Origin: a virus
Taxonomy: Duplodnaviria > Heunggongvirae > Uroviricota > Caudoviricetes
IMG/VR virus record: IMGVR_UViG_3300029846_000231
Strand: one strand, 5' to 3'
Length of the DNA: 31,774 nucleotides
Numbering within the stretch: the stretch's first letter is position 1; every line of letters starts with the position of its first letter. Position numbers and translations under genes: made by a program. Shown here piece by piece: positions 1 through 25,999 of the stretch. The notes beneath the pieces are model-generated. The model ran no database searches. It was given only the letters and a program-made list of their open reading frames with translations, and was not told the origin of the DNA.

Positions 1-642
1 TTAATCGGACGCTTTTAAATTTTTATTTTTCCCTGCAGAAAAATTAGCTTTCCCGCTGTTTTGCAACTCAACAAGAGGAGATAACCGTCGGTAAACAGCC
101 AAAAGTATCTTTAACTGAACCAGTTCATCTGCCCCCGATAGTTGAACCAAGTTTTTACGTTGTTCTTCACTAAGTGCCATCACAGATTCAAGTGATTTAA
201 CTGCGTCAGAAACAAGTTCAATCTCTTTAATTTGATTCTGTATACGCAGCTTCTCTGATTTCAACTTTGCCCATTCTCTTTGTCGATATGTACGCATCAC
301 CTGATCGTAAACTTTGTTGGCAGCCAGAATACTTCCACCAACAGCAGTAACTAACTCAGCAATCTGCCAAGAGATATCAATAAGAGCAGACAATTCAATA
401 AAGCCAGGAGAGGCATACTGAATTTTTTTCACTACAGGACGTAAATCTGGTGGAGTCGCACTGTAAGCCCCTCTAAAAAAGTTCACTACACTGTGCCCAC
501 CCTCCCAAGGCATTGTTGAATATCCTCTTGATCCTCCTTTTAGGCCATAAAAAAAACCATATAGCTGCAAATACTCTTTCGTTAAGACCGCGAAATCAGC
601 TAACTCCCAACGATTATCAAGCTCAATTATAACTTTTTCCAT
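1..642 (-). CDS. hypothetical protein, 213 aa, AT-rich cargo gene with a coiled-coil-like C-terminal half
   Basis: Complete ORF: ATG at 642, TAA stop at 1-3 (window starts 'tta'). Clearly AT-richer than the adjacent GC-rich phage genes. C-terminal half is heptad-like and charged (EWAKLKSEKLRIQNQIKEIELVSD...). No family recognised. Confidence 0.5.
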   Translation of the reverse strand: MEKVIIELDNRWELADFAVLTKEYLQLYGFFYGLKGGSRGYSTMPWEGGHSVVNFFRGAYSATPPDLRPVVKKIQYASPGFIELSALIDISWQIAELVTAVGGSILAANKVYDQVMRTYRQREWAKLKSEKLRIQNQIKEIELVSDAVKSLESVMALSEEQRKNLVQLSGADELVQLKILLAVYRRLSPLVELQNSGKANFSAGKNKNLKASD

Positions 643-6195: not shown

Positions 6196-7386
6196 TTAAT
6201 TGCTGTTAACCGAGGTGACCAGATTTGCCAGGTATTTATCGGTAATACGCTGGCGCAGGGTCAGGTTTTCAAGAGGAGGCACCGGTGTATAGTCGTAGTC
6301 GATATACAGTTTTCCGGCCTTGAGGGTTTCCGCATCGTTGGATTCTTCGCTGAACCAGCAGGTCGCATCCACAATATAGCCGTTTGTTTTCAGCTCACGG
6401 AATTTGGCATTGATGCCGTCAACGATGTCGCGAATCAGCGTTGCAGTGATGGGCTTGTCCACAGCCCACATGTGCGCCTCAGCCATCGTGTCGGCCAGCA
6501 CCTGCGCGGTGCGGGTGTAGTTTTCAAAGAGGAACAGCGGGTCATCAGAGCAGGTACGGTTACCCCAGAAGCGGAAACCGTCACGGCGAATCAGCGTTGT
6601 GACACCTGACTCGTTCAACAGGTCAGCATCAGTGCCGGACTCCTGCAAATCCCAGAATACAGAGGCACTGATGCCGGTAACACCGTTTACCCCGACATTG
6701 GACAGCGTTTTATGCCAGCCCTGCTCCTGGTCGATTTTAGCGCGCAGACCCAGCGCACGGGCGGTGGCATACGCGGTGGCGGTGGTGCTGCTGACCGTAT
6801 CCCATGCGAGGAAATCCGGCCAGATGACCATCAGCTCACGCTGGCTGAAATTCTGGCGGTAGGCTTTCACCTCGGAAATGGTTTTACAGCCCCATGCGCT
6901 GATATACCCGAAAGCGCGCAGCTTCTGACAGACTGATGCCAGTGCAACAGCCACCTCTTTGGTGTCCAGTCCCGGCACGCCGAGAATACGCGGTTTAACA
7001 CCGGTTACCGACTCTGCCGCCAGCAGGGCTTTCAGTCCGGTATACTGACCGTTTTCGTCAGTGGTGCCGATGATATTGGAAACGGTCTGCGCGAGTTTCG
7101 TTTCTTCGTCGTCGCCGGTGCCGTCTTCAACACGCACGACAACGGTAACCGGTTTTGACTGGTCAGCGATGGCCTGCAACGATGCCGCCAGCGTGCCTTT
7201 TTTACCGGCCTTTGCAATTGCGCTCTGCACATTGGTAATCAGCACCGGTTTATTGAGGGGGAAGGTTTCCGCATCCGCATCGCTGGCCGTACAGACCATG
7301 CCGACAATGGCAGTGGATACGGTGGAAATGACGCGGGTGCCGTCGTTAATCTCCAGCACCTGCACGCCGTGATGATAGTCACTCAT
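6196..7386 (-). CDS. FI: contractile tail sheath protein FI (396 aa)
   Basis: 396 aa, the P2 gpFI length; first gene of the FI-FII-E-T-U-D late operon. Confidence 0.9.
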   Translation of the reverse strand: MSDYHHGVQVLEINDGTRVISTVSTAIVGMVCTASDADAETFPLNKPVLITNVQSAIAKAGKKGTLAASLQAIADQSKPVTVVVRVEDGTGDDEETKLAQTVSNIIGTTDENGQYTGLKALLAAESVTGVKPRILGVPGLDTKEVAVALASVCQKLRAFGYISAWGCKTISEVKAYRQNFSQRELMVIWPDFLAWDTVSSTTATAYATARALGLRAKIDQEQGWHKTLSNVGVNGVTGISASVFWDLQESGTDADLLNESGVTTLIRRDGFRFWGNRTCSDDPLFLFENYTRTAQVLADTMAEAHMWAVDKPITATLIRDIVDGINAKFRELKTNGYIVDATCWFSEESNDAETLKAGKLYIDYDYTPVPPLENLTLRQRITDKYLANLVTSVNSN

Positions 7387-7445: not shown

Positions 7446-8039
7446 CTATTTGTCCCGGTTGGCTAAGGGATGACACAATTTATTCTTTGTCGCTGATGAG
7501 GGGAATTTTTTATAGAGCGTGGACAGGCCAATATCAAAAATCAGCGCCACGCGTTGACGTGATTCACCCGCAGCCAGCAACCGTCCTGCCTGTTCCCACT
7601 CACTCGCGGTGAGCTTCGGACGTCTGCCACCAATACGACCTTTGGCTCTGGCCGCTTCCAGTCCGGCGCGAGTCCGCTCGACAATGAGTTCTCGTTCCAT
7701 TTCAGCCAGGGCACCCATCACATGAAAGAAAAAACGTCCCATCGGCGTGCTGGTATCAATGGCATCCGTCAGGCTGCGAAAATTAATGCCGCGTTCGCGC
7801 AGCTCCTCAACCAGAATAACCAGATGCCGCATACTACGCCCCAGCCGGTCCAGCTTCCAGACTACCAGTGTATCCCCCTCCGATAATGTCCTGAGCAGTT
7901 TTTTCAGTCCCGGCCTGTCGGACTTCGTGCCGCTGATTTTATCCTCAAAAATCAGCTCACATCCTGCACACTCCAGCGCGTTACGCTGCAATTCCGTATT
8001 CTGGTCATTTGTTGACACGCGGACATAGCCAATAAGCAT
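7446..8039 (-). CDS. serine-recombinase DNA invertase, Gin/Cin/Hin/Pin family (197 aa)
   Basis: N-terminus MLIGYVRVSTNDQNTELQRNAL with the catalytic Ser in RVSTNDQ, plus VVWKLDRLGRSM and MGRFFFHVMGALAEMERELI, which I recognise as near-identical to Mu Gin. Sits directly beside an invertible tail-fibre segment. Confidence 0.9.
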   Translation of the reverse strand: MLIGYVRVSTNDQNTELQRNALECAGCELIFEDKISGTKSDRPGLKKLLRTLSEGDTLVVWKLDRLGRSMRHLVILVEELRERGINFRSLTDAIDTSTPMGRFFFHVMGALAEMERELIVERTRAGLEAARAKGRIGGRRPKLTASEWEQAGRLLAAGESRQRVALIFDIGLSTLYKKFPSSATKNKLCHPLANRDK

Positions 8040-8094
8040 GATGGATCCCCTGAATAAAAACCGGGGATGATGCCAGTTAGCCGTAATCTCTGCA

Positions 8095-8120
8095 TTTTCT
8101 TAAACGTTGGTTTGGGAGAA
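8095..8120. repeat. candidate gix/hix-like invertase crossover site (left end of invertible segment)
   Basis: 26-bp 12-2-12 site ttttcttaaacg-tt-ggtttgggagaa. The reverse complement of its right half, TTCTCCCAAACC, resembles the Gin/Hin half-site consensus TTATCAAAAACC. It lies at the start of the silent fibre cassette, at the shared GLG codons. Confidence 0.55.
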
Positions 8121-8480
8121 GCGGCAAAACGGGGGGTGGGAACAGGGGAAAATCAGATACCGGACATGGCTTCATTTAGTGGGGTGAGGGATTATTACGG
8201 AAAACAACTTTTGCCAGGAGGGTTGATACTTCAGTGGCTGACGATTCCATCAAGTGCAGCAGCCAAAGCTGTAACACTGAATAATGGTAATTATCAGCTG
8301 TCAGGCTATAAATGGCCCCAGTCATTTGGTGTCCTGTTTGCTGTGTTTGCTACAAAAGTTTCTGGCTCGACTAACGAAGCATATGCAATCTCAGTTAATC
8401 GTCACTCTACCGATGTAATTGTCACCTGGAATGCCCGTAAGGCTGATGATGTCCACATTTTAGGAATTGGGAAATTATGA
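8109..8480 (+). CDS. silent alternative tail-fibre C-terminal cassette (expressed only after inversion)
   Basis: Frame begins with [23 protein letters not shown], paralogous to residues 277-299 of H (GLGTAAKKDVGTGTGQVPDMSSF), then diverges. No independent promoter or RBS is expected. Confidence 0.65.
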
Positions 8481-8896
8481 AAATGAAATGGTCCCCATCT
8501 GTTCAGGGATTTTTCTCTGAAAATAACAGCGATATTCCCGATGATGCTTTCGATATTGAAGATGCTCTTTATTATGAACTTATGAATGGTCAGAGTACGG
8601 GGAAAATTATTATCAATAACCCGGATAACTACCCTGTACTTACTGAATATCCAGCGAAGACACAGGAACAGGAAATAGCTGAAGCGGAGGGAATGAAAAG
8701 TATACTTATTGAACAGGCCAACGAATACATGAACAGTAAGCAATGGCCTGGTAAAGCCGCTATTGGTCGTCTGAAAGGTGAGGAACTGGCGCAATATAAT
8801 TTGTGGCTGGATTATCTGGACGCACTGGAACTGGTTGATACCTCCAGTGCTCCAGATATTGAATGGCCTACGCCTCCGGCAGTTCAGGCCAGATGA
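8477..8896 (+). CDS. alternative tail-fibre assembly chaperone (Tfa-like), cognate to the silent cassette
   Basis: 139 aa, start overlaps the cassette stop (ATGA). C-terminus [16 protein letters not shown] is paralogous to the C-terminus of the active Tfa ([15 protein letters not shown]). Confidence 0.65.
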
Positions 8897-9299
8897 CATC
8901 CGGCGCAGGGGAAGTATCTACCGCTTCCAATTTCTTGGCATAACTCCGCCAGGCTATGAGCCTGGCTTTATCTGCATCGCTGATAATTCCGAGCAGTAAA
9001 TCAGTCTGCCATTCACGAACAGCTTCCGCAGATTCGGCCATTAGCTGCGCTTTTTGGTTTTCTGCCTCCTGCACTGCGATAGCGTGAAGCTCATCATCTG
9101 TTGGAGGCGGAATATCTTCCCACGCAGGCAAACCATCAGCACCCGGCACACGTCGCTTCCCGTCGTTTTCTCCGATAAAAAATTCTGCAAAAATCTCGTT
9201 CGAAACAGGGACGGCATCAGTAAATGCGTCTGTTTTCAGTAAAGTACTTCCTGCAGCAATGAACACATTCTTTTTTGCGCTGTAATAGTAACTGGTCAT
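8868..9299 (-). CDS. G: tail-fibre assembly protein (Tfa, P2 gpG-like), active orientation
   Basis: 143 aa immediately downstream of H, with the conserved Tfa C-terminal motif; converges on the alternative tfa with a 29-nt overlap. Confidence 0.75.
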   Translation of the reverse strand: MTSYYYSAKKNVFIAAGSTLLKTDAFTDAVPVSNEIFAEFFIGENDGKRRVPGADGLPAWEDIPPPTDDELHAIAVQEAENQKAQLMAESAEAVREWQTDLLLGIISDADKARLIAWRSYAKKLEAVDTSPAPDVIWPELPEA

Positions 9300-10520
9300 T
9301 TACACTCTCCCTACGGCAATCCAGTGCGCCGTTGCTGAGCCGCCCTTGAACGTTTTATCTGCTCCCTGCCACCAGATCGAGCGGAACCCGAAAGAGGTTG
9401 TTCCCAGCGATTGAGCACCATAGATCACTAACCCTGAGTACACGTTCCCGGACGAAACCCAGTTCGACACCGCAGATTCCCCCGTCAGAACGCTATAGAA
9501 ACTCATCGCAAGGCCAAGGTTCACGGTCGCAAATCCATTTGCATCTGTAGACACCTTACCGCCCTGAATAACAATGCCTCCCGGCAGTTGCATCACAAAG
9601 GCATTAACGTTGCCTGTAACTGTGAATGATGACATATCCGGCACTTGGCCCGTTCCGGTTCCAACATCTTTTTTGGCTGCTGTTCCTAAACCAAGGTATG
9701 CGAGAAGACCAGCTACATCCTTTCCACTCAAATTAGTCAGCGTATTGTCCCGTGGCTGCTTACCTGACAGCGCATTGTTAATGGTGGTACTGAATTTCGG
9801 GTCATTGTTAATGGCTGCGGCAATTTCTTTCAGTGTGTCCAGCGTGGCTGGCGCACCGTTAATCAGAGCGGTAATAGCGGCCTGAACAAACTCAGTGGTC
9901 GCAATCCGCGTGGTGTTATTTCCTGCGGCAGGCGTCGGCGCTTTTGGTTCTCCGGTAAATGTCGGATTATGTTTCTGTGCATACTGGGTATGAGGGTCCT
10001 GTGCGGCAATGTGGTTTCTCATTTGGTCATCCACATACAGCCTTAATTCCAGGACTTCATCATCCACGTATTTACGGGTCGCCAGTACCACCGACGGGTC
10101 GATTTTCAGCGTGATAGCTTCGGTATTCGTGACAACCAGAATCATGCGGATAGTCTGGGTACGACCACTGCCTTCCTGCAACTGCGGTTTGTACGTTTCC
10201 GGGCAGTTCGCCACCGCAATGAGTACGCCTTCATCATCATAAAGCCCAATCTCACGGATCCAGAATCCGCCCTCGTTCTCAGGGATGATTTGCTCCGCAA
10301 TAATCTGGCTCTGGTTGTTCGGGTCAACACTCAGAAGATTCAGCGGCGCGATGCGTTTCTGGTTAATAAGTTTTGTCTGTGCCGGGTCTGGTGTCGGCAA
10401 GACACCATTTGCATCACCAACGGCCATTTGCGTCAGATTCAGCTTACTGCCGAGCATCGTCGCGTTAGCCAGCCGTGCCGCGCCCTGATTAGTCAGAATG
10501 GCGTAGTATTTCACTGTCAT
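9300..10520 (-). CDS. H: tail fibre protein H (406 aa), active orientation; C-terminal about 130 aa lie inside the invertible segment
   Basis: N-terminal region (MAVGD...GGFWIREIGLYDDEGVLIAVAN...YKPQLQEGSGR) resembles the conserved P2 gpH N-terminal domain as I remember it; C-terminal part is variable. Confidence 0.85.
   Translation of the reverse strand: MTVKYYAILTNQGAARLANATMLGSKLNLTQMAVGDANGVLPTPDPAQTKLINQKRIAPLNLLSVDPNNQSQIIAEQIIPENEGGFWIREIGLYDDEGVLIAVANCPETYKPQLQEGSGRTQTIRMILVVTNTEAITLKIDPSVVLATRKYVDDEVLELRLYVDDQMRNHIAAQDPHTQYAQKHNPTFTGEPKAPTPAAGNNTTRIATTEFVQAAITALINGAPATLDTLKEIAAAINNDPKFSTTINNALSGKQPRDNTLTNLSGKDVAGLLAYLGLGTAAKKDVGTGTGQVPDMSSFTVTGNVNAFVMQLPGGIVIQGGKVSTDANGFATVNLGLAMSFYSVLTGESAVSNWVSSGNVYSGLVIYGAQSLGTTSFGFRSIWWQGADKTFKGGSATAHWIAVGRV
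9681..9706. repeat. candidate gix/hix-like invertase crossover site (right end of invertible segment, inside H)
   Basis: 26-bp site tgttcctaaacc-aa-ggtatgcgagaa; left half resembles the Gin gix half-site TTCCTGTAAACC. The central dinucleotide is the reverse complement of that at 8107-8108, so the two sites are in inverted orientation. It overlies the H codons LGLGT. Confidence 0.55.
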
Positions 10521-11128
10521 GCGTTTACTCTCAGGTTATCAATTAAATGAATGGCCGAGGCCGGGAAATAATCCCCTCCGACAATAATGGCCTCCGGGGT
10601 GTAGGGATAAACCGTCAGGGCGTCGCCGTGATAGCATCCCGCACCGGCAAAAATGTTGCCGGTTGTACTTAAACTGATAGCCAGTCCCGTCAGATGGCGG
10701 CTTGCAGGTTTTGCATCAGCAACGAGACGCTCCAGCTCCTGATACATTTCCTCGGTAATACCCTGCTCAAGCACGCCAACAACGATGCGGAACGTCCCCG
10801 GCTCCTCGTTGAGCTGCCACCACTCCCTCACCTCAATCAGATAGCCGAGCGGCTCCACCACACGGCGAATCGCACCAATAGTGCCCTTATGGCAGTGAAT
10901 GAAATACGCATCGCGGATAACAGCGCGTTTTGTCGCTTCCGGCCACTTATCATCCCAGCGGTCAACCGAAAATGACCACGCCAGCCACGGCAGCAGATTT
11001 GCCGGACAGGTATCCGGGTTCCACAGCTCACGAATACTGACCGGCGTTTTTTCAATTTCCGCACAGGCTTTTGCGGCGGCAACTTCAAGCGGTGATGAGC
11101 CGGTCGGCAGCAGGCGCGAATCACTCAT
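10517..11128 (-). CDS. I: baseplate assembly protein I
   Basis: P2 position between J and H; N-terminus MSDSRLLPTGSSPLEVAAAKACAEIEKTPV matches my memory of P2 gpI. ORF is 203 aa, longer than the about 176 aa I recall for P2, so the C-terminus may differ. Confidence 0.8.
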   Translation of the reverse strand: MSDSRLLPTGSSPLEVAAAKACAEIEKTPVSIRELWNPDTCPANLLPWLAWSFSVDRWDDKWPEATKRAVIRDAYFIHCHKGTIGAIRRVVEPLGYLIEVREWWQLNEEPGTFRIVVGVLEQGITEEMYQELERLVADAKPASRHLTGLAISLSTTGNIFAGAGCYHGDALTVYPYTPEAIIVGGDYFPASAIHLIDNLRVNA

Positions 11129-12029
11129 CCGAGCCTCCGGTCACGACGCTGTATTCGGTGCAGAAAGACGCCTGCGTACTGTTGAGCACAATGTCAGCCA
11201 GAGGTGCGGCCAGCTCGACACGCTGCACGCCTTCCACATGCAACGCGGCATAAATGGCAGACAGACGGATGTCGCGCCCCAGCCGGTGCTGTGCCGTGAT
11301 GTACGCTTCCAGCTTTTTCACGGCAGCAGCGCGGATGGGTTCGCTTTCGGGACCAGGGTAAAGGTAAAGCGTGGCGTTTATCTGGTATTCAACGATGGCG
11401 GCAGACTGCACGGTCACGCGGTCGGCCACCGGCCTGACGTCCTCGCCATTAAGGGCGTTACGCACCACGGCCAGCAGGTCTTCGGATGCGACGCCGTTAT
11501 TTTCACGTGACAGCACAGAGATAGTGACGCAGGCCGGAGACGGACTGGTGACAGAGATATCCGCGACACGCCCGTCGGCACTGCGGCCATGATACTGATA
11601 GGCTCCCACCGACCCGGCGACGCTTAAGCCCTCAAATGCCTGCTGAATACGCAGACGATAATCGGTGTCAGATTCCATCACTGCCGGTGTCGGCGGAATG
11701 GTCGAATCATCTGCAGGGGTGATAATCAGGCGCGTGGTGTTGTAATTGGCACCAATTACATCAAGGTCATTACCGGCAGCACAGGCCAGCATCACCGCCC
11801 GTGCGGCCTCATTCACACGCTGACGCCAGATAAGCTCACGATAAGCATTTTCCTCCAGCAGTTTGACGAGAGGCTCAGATTCCAGCGTCAGGGTACGGGC
11901 GACCGCCTCCTGCTGGTCTTCCGGGTAAAGGGAAATCAGTGTCGCCTTGCGTTCGGCAAGAATGGTTTCAAAGTCCAGCTCCTCGACCACATCCGGTGCG
12001 GGTAGCTGGTTCAGGTCGATAATCGGCAT
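11121..12029 (-). CDS. J: baseplate protein J (302 aa)
   Basis: 302 aa, the P2 gpJ length; position between W and I. Confidence 0.9.
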   Translation of the reverse strand: MPIIDLNQLPAPDVVEELDFETILAERKATLISLYPEDQQEAVARTLTLESEPLVKLLEENAYRELIWRQRVNEAARAVMLACAAGNDLDVIGANYNTTRLIITPADDSTIPPTPAVMESDTDYRLRIQQAFEGLSVAGSVGAYQYHGRSADGRVADISVTSPSPACVTISVLSRENNGVASEDLLAVVRNALNGEDVRPVADRVTVQSAAIVEYQINATLYLYPGPESEPIRAAAVKKLEAYITAQHRLGRDIRLSAIYAALHVEGVQRVELAAPLADIVLNSTQASFCTEYSVVTGGSDE

Positions 12030-22287: not shown

Positions 22288-22429
22288 ACACCCCGTCATC
22301 ACGCCCTCACACGCTCACCACCGCACAAAATACCCCGCAGACACACCAACGCCCCGGCGCACAATCTAAACGCCATCAAGACGCGCTCAGACGCTGAAAA
22401 AATAAAATCAGCACCACCGCCAGCGCGCA

Positions 22430-22448
22430 GTGCTTTCCCCGCCTCGCC
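22430..22448. other. cos site (19-nt cohesive-end sequence)
   Basis: gtgctttccccgcctcgcc is the reverse complement of GGCGAGGCGGGGAAAGCAC, which I recall as the P2 cohesive end; located about 170 bp beyond Q, as in P2. Confidence 0.8.
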
Positions 22449-22686
22449 CGCCCGCTTCATGGGGCAGTTTTAATGCAGTTGCATAGATACTATGGATCCG
22501 CACCAGTCCTGACCGCACGCAGCCTGAACGGACATCCCCGACGCATGCAAAAACATTCACTTGTTGCATGCAACGGCTTATTTAATGACAAATCAACTTA
22601 AATTTACAAAATCCACAGGTATGGATACTTTGCGAACATGATAGGCTTACGAGAATTATCGAGCCTATTTTTGACCGGAGCAATGT

Positions 22687-23628
22687 ATGCAAGGTAAAGT
22701 TGACGAACAGCAATCCAATGATATTGAAGCTGAGTTTGGATACTATCCAGTAGAAGTTAACGTTGAAACTGATGATTTTTCTTTACTTACTTTACCCGGT
22801 CTAGCGGAAAAAACAAATCTTATAAACAATCACAGAAATGTTATTAACGGTTGGATATACCCAGGAAACCAAGAAGTATATAACCTCAATGGAGGCATAT
22901 CCACAATGCCTTTTAGCCAACGAGTATTTGGCTTACCCAAAACACACTCACTAAAATTAAAAAATACATCTTCACTAGAAACTCTCAATTTTGCTGTGTG
23001 GTGTCTGTCTTTTTTCAAAGGGATAAGATTAACAACTACTGATGCCGGTTTTTTAGACGCAACCCCAATAAAACCTAGCAAATTAACTGACTTTATTCTG
23101 GTCAAGTGCTCTGAAAAAGAGGTTATAGAATTAGCACTCAAATACATGTCTAGCGAGACAAAAACCAAACACGCACCAATAAATATAGCAGCAATAGTGC
23201 ATGCACTATTTTTATCCCAAAACCCACAATACCTTAGCTTCGAAAAATTCCAGTATCTTTATATGGCACTGGATAGTTGCTTTGCTTTAACATGGGCAGA
23301 AAAGAACAAGTGTACAGAAAAGACTCTAAATCACTCCAGGCGCTTGAAGTGGATCTGCAAAACTTATGGAATACCACGACCATCATGGGTTACAGGCAAA
23401 AAAAACATTACAAACATCCGCAATGAAAACTTTCATGAAGCTATGTTTCATGGTCAACCACTTGGCTTTACCACTATTAACAATTATCAATATGGAGATG
23501 ACATATTACAACAAATGCAGGCTTTAATTTGCCGATTACTCGTTGCGATTCTTGGTGTTAACGCCCCCGATTACATCACATCGAACGTGAACTCTCGTGA
23601 ATATCATTCACTAACATTAAAAATATAA
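22687..23628 (+). CDS. hypothetical protein, 313 aa, AT-rich cargo; candidate HEPN-like defence effector
   Basis: GGAG 6 nt before the ATG. Strong compositional contrast with flanking phage genes. C-terminal region has KNITNIRNENFHEAMFHG, i.e. an R-N-x3-H motif of the HEPN type (Rx4-6H). Family not recognised. Confidence 0.6.
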   Translation: MQGKVDEQQSNDIEAEFGYYPVEVNVETDDFSLLTLPGLAEKTNLINNHRNVINGWIYPGNQEVYNLNGGISTMPFSQRVFGLPKTHSLKLKNTSSLETLNFAVWCLSFFKGIRLTTTDAGFLDATPIKPSKLTDFILVKCSEKEVIELALKYMSSETKTKHAPINIAAIVHALFLSQNPQYLSFEKFQYLYMALDSCFALTWAEKNKCTEKTLNHSRRLKWICKTYGIPRPSWVTGKKNITNIRNENFHEAMFHGQPLGFTTINNYQYGDDILQQMQALICRLLVAILGVNAPDYITSNVNSREYHSLTLKI

Positions 23629-23644
23629 AACGACTAAAAATACT

Positions 23645-23668
23645 CTCCAGTAACAATAAGTACTGGAG
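23645..23668 (-). terminator. Rho-independent terminator between the convergent cargo genes
   Basis: 8-bp stem ctccagta / tactggag with 8-nt loop; on the minus strand followed by AGTATTTTTAG, 40 nt after the stop of the 199-aa gene. Confidence 0.55.
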
Positions 23669-23710
23669 ATGTATTATCACTAAAACCAATAAAAAATCAC
23701 AACTAATGCT

Positions 23711-24310
23711 TTACTTAGATAGTTTGTCTTTAATTATATTCAGAACACCAATTATTAATTCACTGATTGGCGTGGCCAACTCAATAGTATTAGATGTCGA
23801 CTTTGTTCTAAAGTCTTTATCTGTCGGGTGTTGAAATGCTGATTTAAGAAGAGTCAAAAGCAAAGTTAAACCCACACCAAGGATGAATGCAACAATAGCT
23901 ATTAGAGAACTGGCCGATAACCAATCGGTGGATAAACCAGAAATAGATTTTCTAACTTTATTAGTGTCTGAAGATGGTGTTATCCTCTCATCAGCCATCT
24001 TCGGATCCGAAGATAAAGCAGAACATTTTTCTGCTGAAACACAAGTTTGTGTATCTACTTTTTGTGTTATCGCTGCGGCAATACTGCTTTTCGCTTCCAG
24101 CAAGCCATTTCCAACAGCCAAAGCAAAGTTAAGCCCCTGCCATAGAAATGTACAAGCAAAACAAAGCACAACGGCAGAGAGCACTAATCGCATGCTTCTA
24201 CGCTCTATACCATCCCGTCTATCTCGCCTTATAAGGATATCAGGATCTAAATCGCCCTTAGGAGTGGTTCCTTGCTCTGGGGACTGTCCAGATAAATCAA
24301 TATCAGCCAT
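23711..24310 (-). CDS. hypothetical membrane protein, 199 aa, two predicted transmembrane helices
   Basis: Hydrophobic stretches LVLSAVVLCFACTFLWQGLNFALAVGNGLL and LIAIVAFILGVGLTLLLTLL; charged N-terminus (RRDRRDGIERR). Same strand and 66 nt downstream of the peptidase gene; AT-rich. Confidence 0.6.
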   Translation of the reverse strand: MADIDLSGQSPEQGTTPKGDLDPDILIRRDRRDGIERRSMRLVLSAVVLCFACTFLWQGLNFALAVGNGLLEAKSSIAAAITQKVDTQTCVSAEKCSALSSDPKMADERITPSSDTNKVRKSISGLSTDWLSASSLIAIVAFILGVGLTLLLTLLKSAFQHPTDKDFRTKSTSNTIELATPISELIIGVLNIIKDKLSK

Positions 24311-24376
24311 AAAAAAATCACCCTTACATGTACAAACGTAAAGGTGATTTTAAACAGGTTAAAAGTTAAAGGCTAA

Positions 24377-24862
24377 TTAATAAGCCATTCCTAAGCTCTT
24401 TAAGCGCCAATGCATAGCGGCTTCTGATACATTAAAGATGCTTGCTAATCTCAAAGTGCTATCAATACCTTCTCTGGATACCAATTGACGTATAGCAGAC
24501 TCAGGCATTAACAACTCAGCAGCAAACTTGTTTGCTTCAACCTCACGGTAATCACGAGCACCTGTTGAATAATTCCCGACATTATCCCGATGGTACTCTC
24601 CGTCCTGGGTATGCCCCAGCACATGATGACCTAACTCGTGTGCAACAGTAAAACGTTGACGATTAGAATGTTCACTAGAATCAAAATAAATCCTATGGAC
24701 ACCCTTTTTGATGACAGCCAGACCGCTTAACCCATCGTTGTTATAAGCCGATTCCTCAAGTGCTTCAACACGAGCACCCCACGCTTTAGCAAGCTTAAAC
24801 GGATCGACAGGTAGTCGGCGATCCCAATAGCGGTCAAGCAGTTTTTTAGCTGCATAGCTCAT
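24377..24862 (-). CDS. ImmA/IrrE-family (M78-type, COG2856-like) Zn-metallopeptidase domain protein, 161 aa
   Basis: HEXXH motif in FTVAHELGHHVLGH plus downstream EANKFAAELLMPE, the characteristic ImmA/IrrE signature. AT-rich; no adjacent XRE/HTH partner on either strand. Confidence 0.7.
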   Translation of the reverse strand: MSYAAKKLLDRYWDRRLPVDPFKLAKAWGARVEALEESAYNNDGLSGLAVIKKGVHRIYFDSSEHSNRQRFTVAHELGHHVLGHTQDGEYHRDNVGNYSTGARDYREVEANKFAAELLMPESAIRQLVSREGIDSTLRLASIFNVSEAAMHWRLKSLGMAY

Positions 24863-25583
24863 GGTTGCCTCCTACGTTAAAAAAGTTAAGTATGCACAGC
24901 CATATCACAGTTGTTATTTTATGTCAAGGCTGTTTTTCAGCCATTACTATAACACTAATCCACGTTTTCCCATAACATTTTCGACATCATATATGCATTC
25001 CGTTCTGCATATAGAGCTTATCTTTGCTGATAACACGAGATGAATACGCGCAACCAGCCCACGATTTATAAAAAACCTTATAAATCAGAATATTGAGTTA
25101 AAAAAACACTAACTACTTGCGCAGCGCGTTGTTAAACCTCAGCGACACTAAAAGAAAATTTCAGAGTCACCGAAGTTTCCACAGAAAACGCAACTTAATG
25201 ATTTTATTGGAATTTATGTCGCTATTTTTAATTACTTGTTTAAATCCGCCATATTGAAACTGTGCATTTCTAGCCACTCACAACTTTAAAAAATTTACAT
25301 TGCTTTCAAGACCTTATCATCCGTAGTCTCTGCTTTTTACTTTGAGCTATATCAAAAAAAGCTCAAACATCCTTGATGCAAAACCAGTATTACACAACAT
25401 AAAATGCAACCAGAAACAACGACATACTATATGTTGTGTTGTTCAGGTCCTCTGTTCGGTGATATGCCAGATCACTTTGCGTTTAAACAGAGCATTATTT
25501 CAGGGCAAGACTTCGCTCAATAGTCACTCCGCCTTAGAAGCGCATATATCGGCGGAAATTGCCCTCTGCTTACAGGAGGCGAT

Positions 25584-25697
25584 ATGAAGAAGTGCTATTA
25601 CTGCATTCTCGTTCTGGCCCTCTTTGGCTATCCATATGGTAGTCCGAGTGGTTTGTCAGTAAACGTCAGTAATATCCATGTAAGTATTTTTCTTTAG
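25584..25697 (+). CDS. small hydrophobic peptide, 37 aa (MKKCYYCILVLALFGYPYGSPSGLSVNVSNIHVSIFL); type I toxin-like or small membrane protein
   Basis: Consensus SD AGGAGG 4 nt before the ATG; TAG stop 13 nt before a strong terminator hairpin. Short, with a hydrophobic core after a KK N-terminus. Confidence 0.4.
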   Translation: MKKCYYCILVLALFGYPYGSPSGLSVNVSNIHVSIFL

Positions 25698-25710
25698 TAT
25701 GCTTCAAACA

Positions 25711-25739
25711 AAAAAACCACCTGCCAGGGTGGTTTTTTT
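25711..25739. terminator. bidirectional Rho-independent terminator
   Basis: A6-ccacctg-cc-agggtgg-T7: GC-rich hairpin flanked by an A-run and a T-run, so it can terminate the small plus-strand gene and minus-strand transcription from A. Confidence 0.65.
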
Positions 25740-25999
25740 GCGCCCGTCATCAATCCGATGAAAGACTAGCAAGACTTCGCTCGAGATGAATTATGCTTCG
25801 ACATAAAGTCACTCGCAATGGTTTTATTAACCGAAATAGATGCTCTTTTATGACTCGAATCAAATAGCTGCCTTCAATTACATGCTAACGATTCAATACA
25901 ATTTAGCCTTCTGATTCAACACGCTATTGCTCCTCATCTACCTTAGAGGTGCTTCGCATAATCCATTCAAAGACATATAAAATCACGCTGTATTTTTAC

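Follow-up and report, generated by a model that had tools for sequence, protein, structure and literature searches.

The 31,774-nt (31.8 kb) stretch of viral DNA analysed here, which we refer to as the window, very probably carries a functional site-specific inversion switch of the Gin/Cin/Pin/Hin (Din) family, which occupies the Z/fun hotspot of a P2-like (Peduovirus) prophage as cargo. A DNA invertase gene and a flippable module lie between the tail sheath gene FI and the tail fibre gene H (Table 1), and the layout is that of an invertible tail-fibre segment: the constant N-terminus of H is outside, two opposed cassettes each with a fibre C-terminus and its chaperone are inside, and the alternative C-terminus would be fused in frame on inversion.

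Table 1. Features of the invertible tail-fibre locus, with positions numbered from the first letter of the window
Feature	Coordinates	Strand	Evidence or remark
Gin/Cin/Pin-family serine DNA invertase, 197 aa	7446..8039	-	Pfam Resolvase (E 3e-52) and HTH_7 (E 1e-12)
Homologue of the P2 pF late-promoter activator-binding site, upstream of FI	7455..7485	-	Alignment with P2 17555-17583
Candidate Fis-dependent recombinational enhancer, 5′ end of invertase gene (gene nt 19-90)	7950..8021	-	Fis-consensus matches
Silent alternative tail-fibre C-terminus ORF	8067..8480	+	ORF map; Pfam (weak Gp53-like_C match)
Left 26-bp crossover site, TTTTCTTAAACG-TT-GGTTTGGGAGAA, core 8107-8108	8095..8120	.	1 mismatch to family pattern
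Tfa chaperone of silent cassette	8477..8896	+	Pfam Caudo_TAP, E 6e-24
Tfa of expressed cassette (gpG equivalent)	8868..9299	-	Pfam Caudo_TAP, E 4e-28
Expressed variable C-terminus of H (GLGTAAKKDVG... to stop, 130 aa)	9300..9692	-	ORF map, alignment
Right 26-bp crossover site, TGTTCCTAAACC-AA-GGTATGCGAGAA, core 9693-9694	9681..9706	.	2 mismatches to family pattern
Constant N-terminal part of tail fibre H, 276 aa, outside invertible segment	9693..10520	-	Pfam Phage_tail_fib, E 1e-62

Judged by its sequence, the backbone looks like a complete P2-like (Peduovirus) prophage, and Peduovirus genomes match the window at 95–97% identity across 77–92% of its first 25 kb. The map order in P2 is H, G, terminator, fun(Z), the pF activator site and FI, and fun(Z) is located between G and FI. 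The first-pass annotation of this DNA had placed the module in the position of P2 Z/fun, and the P2 map bears this out, with the module in the FI–H interval and fun(Z) at the corresponding place in P2; more precisely, it lies in a late gene cluster of the P2 type and is flanked by gene G (tail-fibre assembly) on one side and the pF promoter/FI on the other. Its left edge is where homology to P2 restarts, within the pF activator site, and identity to P2 is near-perfect from TTAGCCAACCGG to the start of FI (a single mismatch in the last ~90 aligned bases). The final ~13 codons of the invertase gene overlap the homologue of this activator site. Invertases have been noted to be frequent in the P2 Z/fun hotspot (bioRxiv 10.1101/2024.10.15.618418).

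The protein adjoining the ~1.6-kb segment had been assigned to the Gin/Cin family, and it is indeed a close relative of Gin. It has the expected layout of an N-terminal catalytic domain and a C-terminal helix-turn-helix, with both the Resolvase and HTH_7 scores exceeding the Pfam cut-offs. The alignment with Mu Gin is ungapped over residues 1–182 with 82% identity (149 identical residues in a global alignment), and a phmmer search matches the invertase to the Gin structures PDB 3UJ3 and 4M6F (E 1e-94; 1.2e-94 for 3UJ3). A catalytically dead invertase, which the first-pass annotation had named as an observation that would count against a switch, is ruled out, as the catalytic Ser9 and the other catalytic residues are all conserved (Y5, R7, S9, D33, S36, R42, D64, R65 and R68) and wild-type H106 and M114 are retained. 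The residues contacting Fis and the enhancer are also kept (K46, K47, R50, Q150, R153 and L154 in Gin numbering). In Hin these contacts comprise K47, basic residues at 48 and 51, Q151, R154 and L155, and such residues are reported to be uniquely conserved among Fis/enhancer-dependent invertases (PMC3798978).

We infer that the switch is Fis- and enhancer-dependent, and there is a candidate enhancer within the 5′ end of the invertase gene. This region has two matches to KNNYRNNWNNYRNNM, a degenerate Fis-consensus motif expected about once per 128 nt, which are 48 bp apart at gene nt 23–37 (8003–8017) and 71–85 (7955–7969); ~98 bp separate the proximal one from the middle of the left crossover site. 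Matches to the motif are present at identical gene positions in gin, cin, pinE and the Cartapus invertase gene, and the candidate Fis sites fall within the interval annotated as the enhancer in P1 (cin nt 19–90). The matches are consistent with an enhancer but are not decisive, as the same region encodes the conserved catalytic N-terminus and is under coding constraint.

Crossover sites were sought on both strands with the pattern TTNTCNNAAACCNNGGTTTNNGANAA, built from the Mu gix sites together with general features of the family, and up to three mismatches were accepted. Only two matches are present in the 31,774-bp window, those listed in Table 1, with a chance expectation of 0.00 (100 shuffles). 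The two sites face in opposite directions with matching TT/AA cores, and they delimit a segment of 1,584 bp from core to core (1,612 bp including both sites). The left site is identical at 25 of 26 positions to the e14 pix site beside pinE, and is unchanged in three of the homologous loci (L006, L007 and L008). The outer half of the right site, GGTATGCGAGAA, is identical in loci L005, L007 and L008 and is similar to that of P1 cixR (GGTATTGGATAA), and the inner half (TGTTCCTAAACC) deviates from the consensus at two positions. Alignment of the two 26-bp sites to the gix/cix/hix consensus had been suggested as a check, and from a comparison with gix, cix and pix we assign both to the cix/pix type. 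Because they have just 7 bp of perfect sequence in common, the inverted sites in the window were missed by a generic repeat finder. A third crossover site, as in an EPEC-like multi-inversion shufflon, was not found in the window at up to three mismatches. We note one correction of detail: the sites had been described as falling exactly on the GLG codons shared by the two fibre genes, and although these codons are within the inner half-sites, the crossover dinucleotide itself is the last two bases of the preceding codon.

The arrangement of the cassettes is as first described, with ORFs and Pfam matches for the H C-terminus and its Tfa on the minus strand and for a second C-terminus and Tfa on the plus strand. 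The full H open reading frame extends over 9300–10520 (minus strand; 406 aa). In the silent fibre ORF the exchangeable part is 8109–8480, and the 14 codons before it lie outside or straddle the left site. The start of the silent-cassette tfa gene overlaps the stop of this ORF, and the two convergent tfa genes overlap at their 3′ ends by 29 nt. The two C-termini had been described as paralogous: both match the C-terminal end of phrog_2557 (H through its residues 186–405, and the silent C-terminus at positions 399–534 of 534, i.e. as a C-terminal fibre end only), but they share only 34% identity (40/116), mainly in the first ~23 residues. The two Tfa proteins are 27% identical. The silent cassette has 96% amino acid identity to the expressed tail-fibre end of the isolated phage Cartapus, and for the expressed H tip no relative above 35% identity was found in 50,697 phage records. 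The silent cassette had also been called promoterless; a simple scan found no sigma-70-like match upstream of 8067 on the plus strand, and from this absence the cassette may lack a promoter. Terminator-like matches at the locus are weak. Inversion between the cores in silico replaces the 406-aa H with an in-frame product of 399 aa, and the alternative C-terminus is fused to the constant N-terminus of H as had been predicted.

We propose that the switch would operate as follows. Invertase dimers would bind both 26-bp sites and, together with host Fis bound to the candidate enhancer near the start of the invertase gene, would form an invertasome. Cuts with a 2-bp stagger at the TT/AA cores and 180-degree rotation of subunits would then invert the 1,584-bp stretch that the cores enclose. 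The late operon would read the constant 276-aa N-terminus of H across the right site, continuing in the present orientation into the 130-aa C-terminus and its Tfa chaperone, and in the inverted orientation passing in frame to the alternative C-terminus, of 123 aa, with the second Tfa after it. Two kinds of virions with different receptor-binding tips would therefore come from one lysogen population, and release of two adsorption types is predicted for this prophage. We infer that inversion has consequences for host range.

Flipping itself is seen in homologous loci, and the copy in the window would be expected to behave similarly. One example is Escherichia coli ATCC 8739, in which two assemblies differ by an exact inversion with its breakpoint inside TTGGTTTGGGAGA, bases that also occur in the left site of the window; the two versions of the fibre gene are 1,542 and 1,422 nt long. 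A second example is the pair of strains WP8-S18-CRE-02 and E6474, both with an invertase differing from that of the window at no more than one position and with an identical left site, where the segments are in opposed orientations (with one of them inverted, 14 mismatches across 1,871 bp, compared with 1,388 as they stand). Inversions have also been detected experimentally, by sequencing, in the P2-like prophages of EPEC, and inversions of the same architecture in e14 have been confirmed by PCR (PMC4272514).

The exact cassette pair of the window is present in only two of 5,426 complete E. coli genomes (NZ_CM128593 and NZ_CP182139), both oriented as in the window, and none of the 5,426 has this segment in its predicted inverted form. 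It is conceivable that the parts of the switch are recognisable but that inversion of this copy has effectively ceased, for example through the degenerate right inner half-site or an unexpressed invertase, and that the silent cassette is a relic; we consider this improbable. The three known copies of the exact pair (those in the window, NZ_CM128593 and NZ_CP182139) all point the same way, although three observations are too few to give an orientation frequency, and the two consensus mismatches in the right site are matched by P1 cixL and Mu gix, functional sites that likewise score two mismatches against the same pattern. A simple sigma-70 scan does not predict a promoter for the invertase, but the invertase ORF, all of its catalytic residues and both cassettes are intact; moreover, the silent cassette is within a ~1.6-kb sequence that is one base different from a copy in an unrelated backbone, and therefore is not decaying. 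That the orientation differences between strains arise from RecA-dependent recombination between short inverted repeats, or are assembly artefacts, rather than reflecting the serine invertase, is extremely unlikely and we reject it, because although the flipping evidence here derives from comparing assemblies, and assemblies can misorient repeat-flanked segments, the inverted sequence shared perfectly amounts to just 7 bp in the window and to 13 bp in the ATCC 8739 locus, which is far too short for RecA and too short to confuse an assembler, the breakpoints fall on a site of the invertase consensus next to an invertase that is intact, and the e14 and P2-like prophage inversions noted above were seen by PCR and sequencing, respectively. 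A functional invertase-driven switch is the reading we prefer.

The segment together with both sites (8090–9734) recurs, with one base changed, in E. coli 100416, within a P2-family prophage in which the identity of the sheath and baseplate genes to those in the window is only ~66–68%. Single cassettes appear to have been swapped between the crossover site and the conserved 29-nt overlap of the convergent tfa genes. It is a tentative and rather doubtful suggestion that the invertible module may act as a mobile unit, with the exchange joints set by the inversion machinery. If the invertase were to catalyse exchange between elements (e.g. co-resident e14-like and P2-like prophages), fibre tips would be shuffled across phage families, in addition to flipping.

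Invertible tail-fibre segments have been textbook matter since Mu, P1 and e14, and because their occurrence in P2-like prophages is also published, the switch described here does not open a new biological question. Its practical value is for annotation. In RefSeq records of the same module the silent cassette is a ‘hypothetical protein’ and the invertase a ‘recombinase family protein’, and recognising the switch explains why tail-fibre genes differ in length among assemblies of one strain.

The gene order I, H, tfa, tfa′, fibre C-terminus′, invertase and FI is shared, in the same hotspot, by P2-like phages and prophages (Peduoviridae) including Cartapus (NC_070909), the ‘Escherichia phage P2’ of O157:H43 T22 (KC618326), pro483, Salmonella phage MET_P1_103_31 and prophages of EPEC E2348/69. 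In MET_P1_103_31 the invertase is 98% identical to that of the window, and the backbone matches at 97% identity across 92% of the first 25 kb. The RefSeq record of Cartapus labels the invertase a ‘Mu phage Gin invertase homolog’, and the invertible tail-fibre switch of P2-like prophages is an already known, ordinary host-range switch, both annotated and published; the combination of cassettes is the sole difference between the window and other P2-like invertible modules.

The more distant relatives share the architecture to different degrees. The Pin/P segment of e14 in E. coli K-12 (pinE, stfE-tfaE and stfP-tfaP) is like the window in having the invertase transcribed away from the segment, two convergent cassettes of fibre tip and tfa with the tfa 3′ ends overlapping by 29 nt, and an AA/TT core, but e14 is a defective lambdoid element in which stfE is pseudogenised, whereas the window contains a complete-looking P2-like prophage. 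The Gin/G segment of Mu (S-U / S′-U′) also has an invertase beside the segment that is transcribed away from it, with a constant fibre N-terminus outside and two alternative C-termini with their chaperones inside. It differs in that the host phage is a transposable myovirus, the G segment is ~3 kb with much longer variable parts, and the gix core is GA/TC rather than AA/TT. The Cin/C segment of P1 shares with the window the AA/TT core, and the GGTAT motif in the outer half-site of cixR, and its annotated enhancer corresponds in position to the candidate in the window, but cin is transcribed towards the segment, cixL overlaps the 3′ end of cin, and the C segment is 4.2 kb.

The window is a Peduovirus-type prophage, with 95–97% identity to several P2-like phages over 77–92% of its first 25 kb. 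The same interval that holds an invertase gene, a 137-aa ORF and a second assembly gene between the tail-fibre assembly gene and FI here contains, on the P2 map, the V-operon terminator, fun(Z) and the pF activator site, in agreement with the first-pass annotation, which had placed the module where P2 has Z/fun.

Features of the tail-fibre inversion module, the surrounding late genes and the low-GC island in the window
Feature	Coordinates	Strand	Remarks
Sheath FI	6196–7386	minus	followed by tube FII, tape measure T
197-aa ORF	7446–8039	minus	Resolvase + HTH_7 (Pfam); between assembly gene and FI
137-aa ORF	8067–8480	plus	between assembly gene and FI
Left site	8095–8120		TTTTCTTAAACG-TT-GGTTTGGGAGAA; pattern match
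Second Caudo_TAP gene	8477–8896	plus	between assembly gene and FI
Caudo_TAP tail-fibre assembly gene	8868–9299	minus	Pfam
H tail fibre, 406 aa	9300–10520	minus	P2 late-gene order
Right site	9681–9706		TGTTCCTAAACC-AA-GGTATGCGAGAA; pattern match
I	10517–11128	minus	P2 late-gene order
J	11121–12029	minus	P2 late-gene order
313-aa ORF	22687–23628	plus	matches phrog_5937, function unknown; no Pfam or PADLOC match
199-aa ORF	23711–24310	minus	matches phrog_8096, function unknown; long hydrophobic stretches
161-aa Peptidase_M78 / CapP-like protein	24377–24862	minus	within low-GC island

The invertase aligns without gaps to residues 1–182 of Mu Gin (PDB 3UJ3/4M6F; E about 1e-94), with 149 identical residues in a global alignment, and these matches, together with its Resolvase and HTH_7 domains, bear out its earlier assignment to the Gin/Cin family. 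The wild-type Gin residues H106 and M114 are retained, at positions where Fis-independent Gin mutants arise. A catalytically dead enzyme had been raised as a possibility, but Ser9 and the other catalytic residues (Y5, R7, D33, S36, R42, D64, R65 and R68) are all present. So too, in Gin numbering, are K46, K47, R50, Q150, R153 and L154, the residues described as uniquely conserved in Fis/enhancer-dependent invertases (McLean et al., PMC3798978). The protein is longer than usual (197 aa vs 188–193 aa) because the reading frame continues beyond the point where the module meets the P2 backbone and into a homologue of the pF activator-binding site; near-perfect P2 identity (one mismatch in the last ~90 aligned bases) restarts at TTAGCCAACCGG. 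The last ~13 codons (within 7446–7487) cross this homologue (7455–7485), which lies upstream of FI, and the resulting C-terminal tail is absent from Gin and from the 188-aa ATCC 8739 invertase; the stop codon is 59 bp from the FI start.

A 26-bp site pattern built from the Mu gix sites and the family consensus matches the window in two places only, with none expected (100 shuffles). Because their cores are reverse complements, the two sites face opposite ways, the arrangement needed for inversion. For a comparison with known sites, as the first-pass annotation had proposed, we used the crossover sites of Mu Gin (gix), P1 Cin (cix) and e14 Pin (pix), annotated or pattern-found in the Mu, P1 and E. 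coli K-12 e14 records. Like cix and pix, the window's sites have an AA/TT core, in contrast to the GA/TC of gix. The left site matches the e14 site next to pinE at 25 of 26 positions, and P1 cixR shares GGTAT with the right site's outer half. In both reading frames the core dinucleotide occupies positions 2 and 3 of the codon preceding Gly-Leu-Gly, and a swap would therefore yield an intact H: in silico inversion of the 1,584 bp that separate the cores converts the 406-aa protein to one of 399 aa. The predicted in-frame fusion of an alternative C-terminus to the constant part of H is thus recovered, and its junction does lie at GLG, although the crossover core falls in the preceding codon and not exactly on the GLG codons.

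Identity between the variable C-termini, of 130 and 123 aa, is 34% and lies mainly in the first ~23 residues, and the two Tfa chaperones are 27% identical with a common C-terminal VDTSxAPDxxWP motif. Both fibre tips match the C-terminal end of one PHROG fibre family, and because the match of the plus-strand ORF is limited to positions 399–534 of 534, it is a fibre end without its own N-terminus; with the Caudo_TAP gene beside it, this corresponds to the second C-terminus and Tfa originally described on that strand. This silent tip resembles the expressed tail-fibre end of the RefSeq Peduoviridae member Cartapus (96% identity). The currently expressed tip (9300–9692, minus strand) is rare: just two out of 5,426 complete E. 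coli genomes have it, and among 50,697 phage records no relative exceeds 35% identity; the best in those records is from Erwinia phage ENT90 (35%). The convergent tfa genes overlap at their 3′ ends by 29 nt (8868–8896), and the same overlap is annotated in e14 (tfaP/tfaE), ATCC 8739, Cartapus and MET_P1_103_31.

The window's cassette pair occurs in 2 of the 5,426 E. coli genomes, both times in the window's orientation. Comparisons among relatives indicate that homologous loci do flip. One example is E. coli ATCC 8739, whose invertase is 84% identical to that of the window: the independent assemblies NZ_CP033020 and NC_010468 have identical flanks of 2,720 and 2,595 bp around 1,831 bp that are exact reverse complements, and the breakpoint ambiguity is confined to TTGGTTTGGGAGA, bases that the window's left site also has. 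A second example is the pair WP8-S18-CRE-02 and E6474, which have the window's backbone, an invertase differing at no more than one position, an identical left site and a right site identical in its outer half. One strain's segment is flipped relative to the other's: over 1,871 bp, inverting leaves 14 mismatches vs 1,388 uninverted. We consider it very probable that the window element is an active host-range switch, and by analogy its inversion would follow the Gin/Cin/Pin paradigm; a frozen copy of the switch takes the main share of the small probability that is left.

A degenerate Fis consensus, KNNYRNNWNNYRNNM, has two matches in the 5′ part of the invertase gene (nt 23–37 and 71–85), 48 bp apart, and matches are at the same gene positions in gin, cin, pinE and the Cartapus invertase gene. 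In P1, cin nt 19–90 are annotated as the Cin enhancer, an interval within which the candidate sites fall. The proximal one is about 98 bp from the left-site centre, close to the distance of roughly 100 bp given for Hin (PMC3798978). The candidate sites are consistent with a recombinational enhancer but do not prove one, because the motif is loosely defined and the same stretch codes for the conserved catalytic N-terminus.

On a more speculative reading, the module or its halves would be exchanged between phage backbones, with joints at the crossover site and at the overlap of the two tfa genes. This reading arises because the segment with both sites (8090–9734) differs at one base (8135) from its copy in E. 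coli 100416 (NZ_CM128593), and because the window and WP8-S18-CRE-02 have all in common save 8907–9683, an interval with the tfa overlap at one end and the right site at the other. The sheath, I and J of the P2-family prophage in E. coli 100416 are only about 66–68% identical to those of the window, with identity falling sharply from 9735 rightward, and the comparison points to recent lateral movement of the module. On the left, the identity shared with E. coli 100416 fades gradually through the invertase gene, a pattern suggestive of ordinary homologous recombination rather than of exchange catalysed by the invertase. The tfa overlap may be a joint for exchange of single cassettes. Similarity to WP8-S18-CRE-02 ends at 8906, just past this overlap.

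We also note two other regions of the window. A low-GC island (22300–25900; 35–42% vs about 56% GC) with three ORFs lies between portal Q and replication A, at the position of the P2 old/tin hotspot, and may be uncharacterised defence or regulatory cargo. A 213-aa ORF (1–642, minus strand; 40% GC) adjoins ogr (783–1115) and matches positions 139–346 of 353 in the PADLOC profile PD-T4-10_B (E 1e-34); any partner gene would fall beyond the window.

The first observation is therefore confirmed, and its interpretation as a Gin-like switch is supported by the sites, the fusion and the homologous loci. By sequencing, Goldberg et al. 2014 (PMC4272514) detected inversions in a pair of P2-like prophages in EPEC E2348/69, of which one was a two-state switch while the second was a shufflon with three sites. 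Egorov et al. 2024 (bioRxiv 10.1101/2024.10.15.618418) state that the P2 Z/fun hotspot often encodes a DNA invertase, together with inversion of the neighbouring genes. Cartapus has the same gene order, with a gene annotated as 'Mu phage Gin invertase homolog', and the system is therefore of a kind already described.
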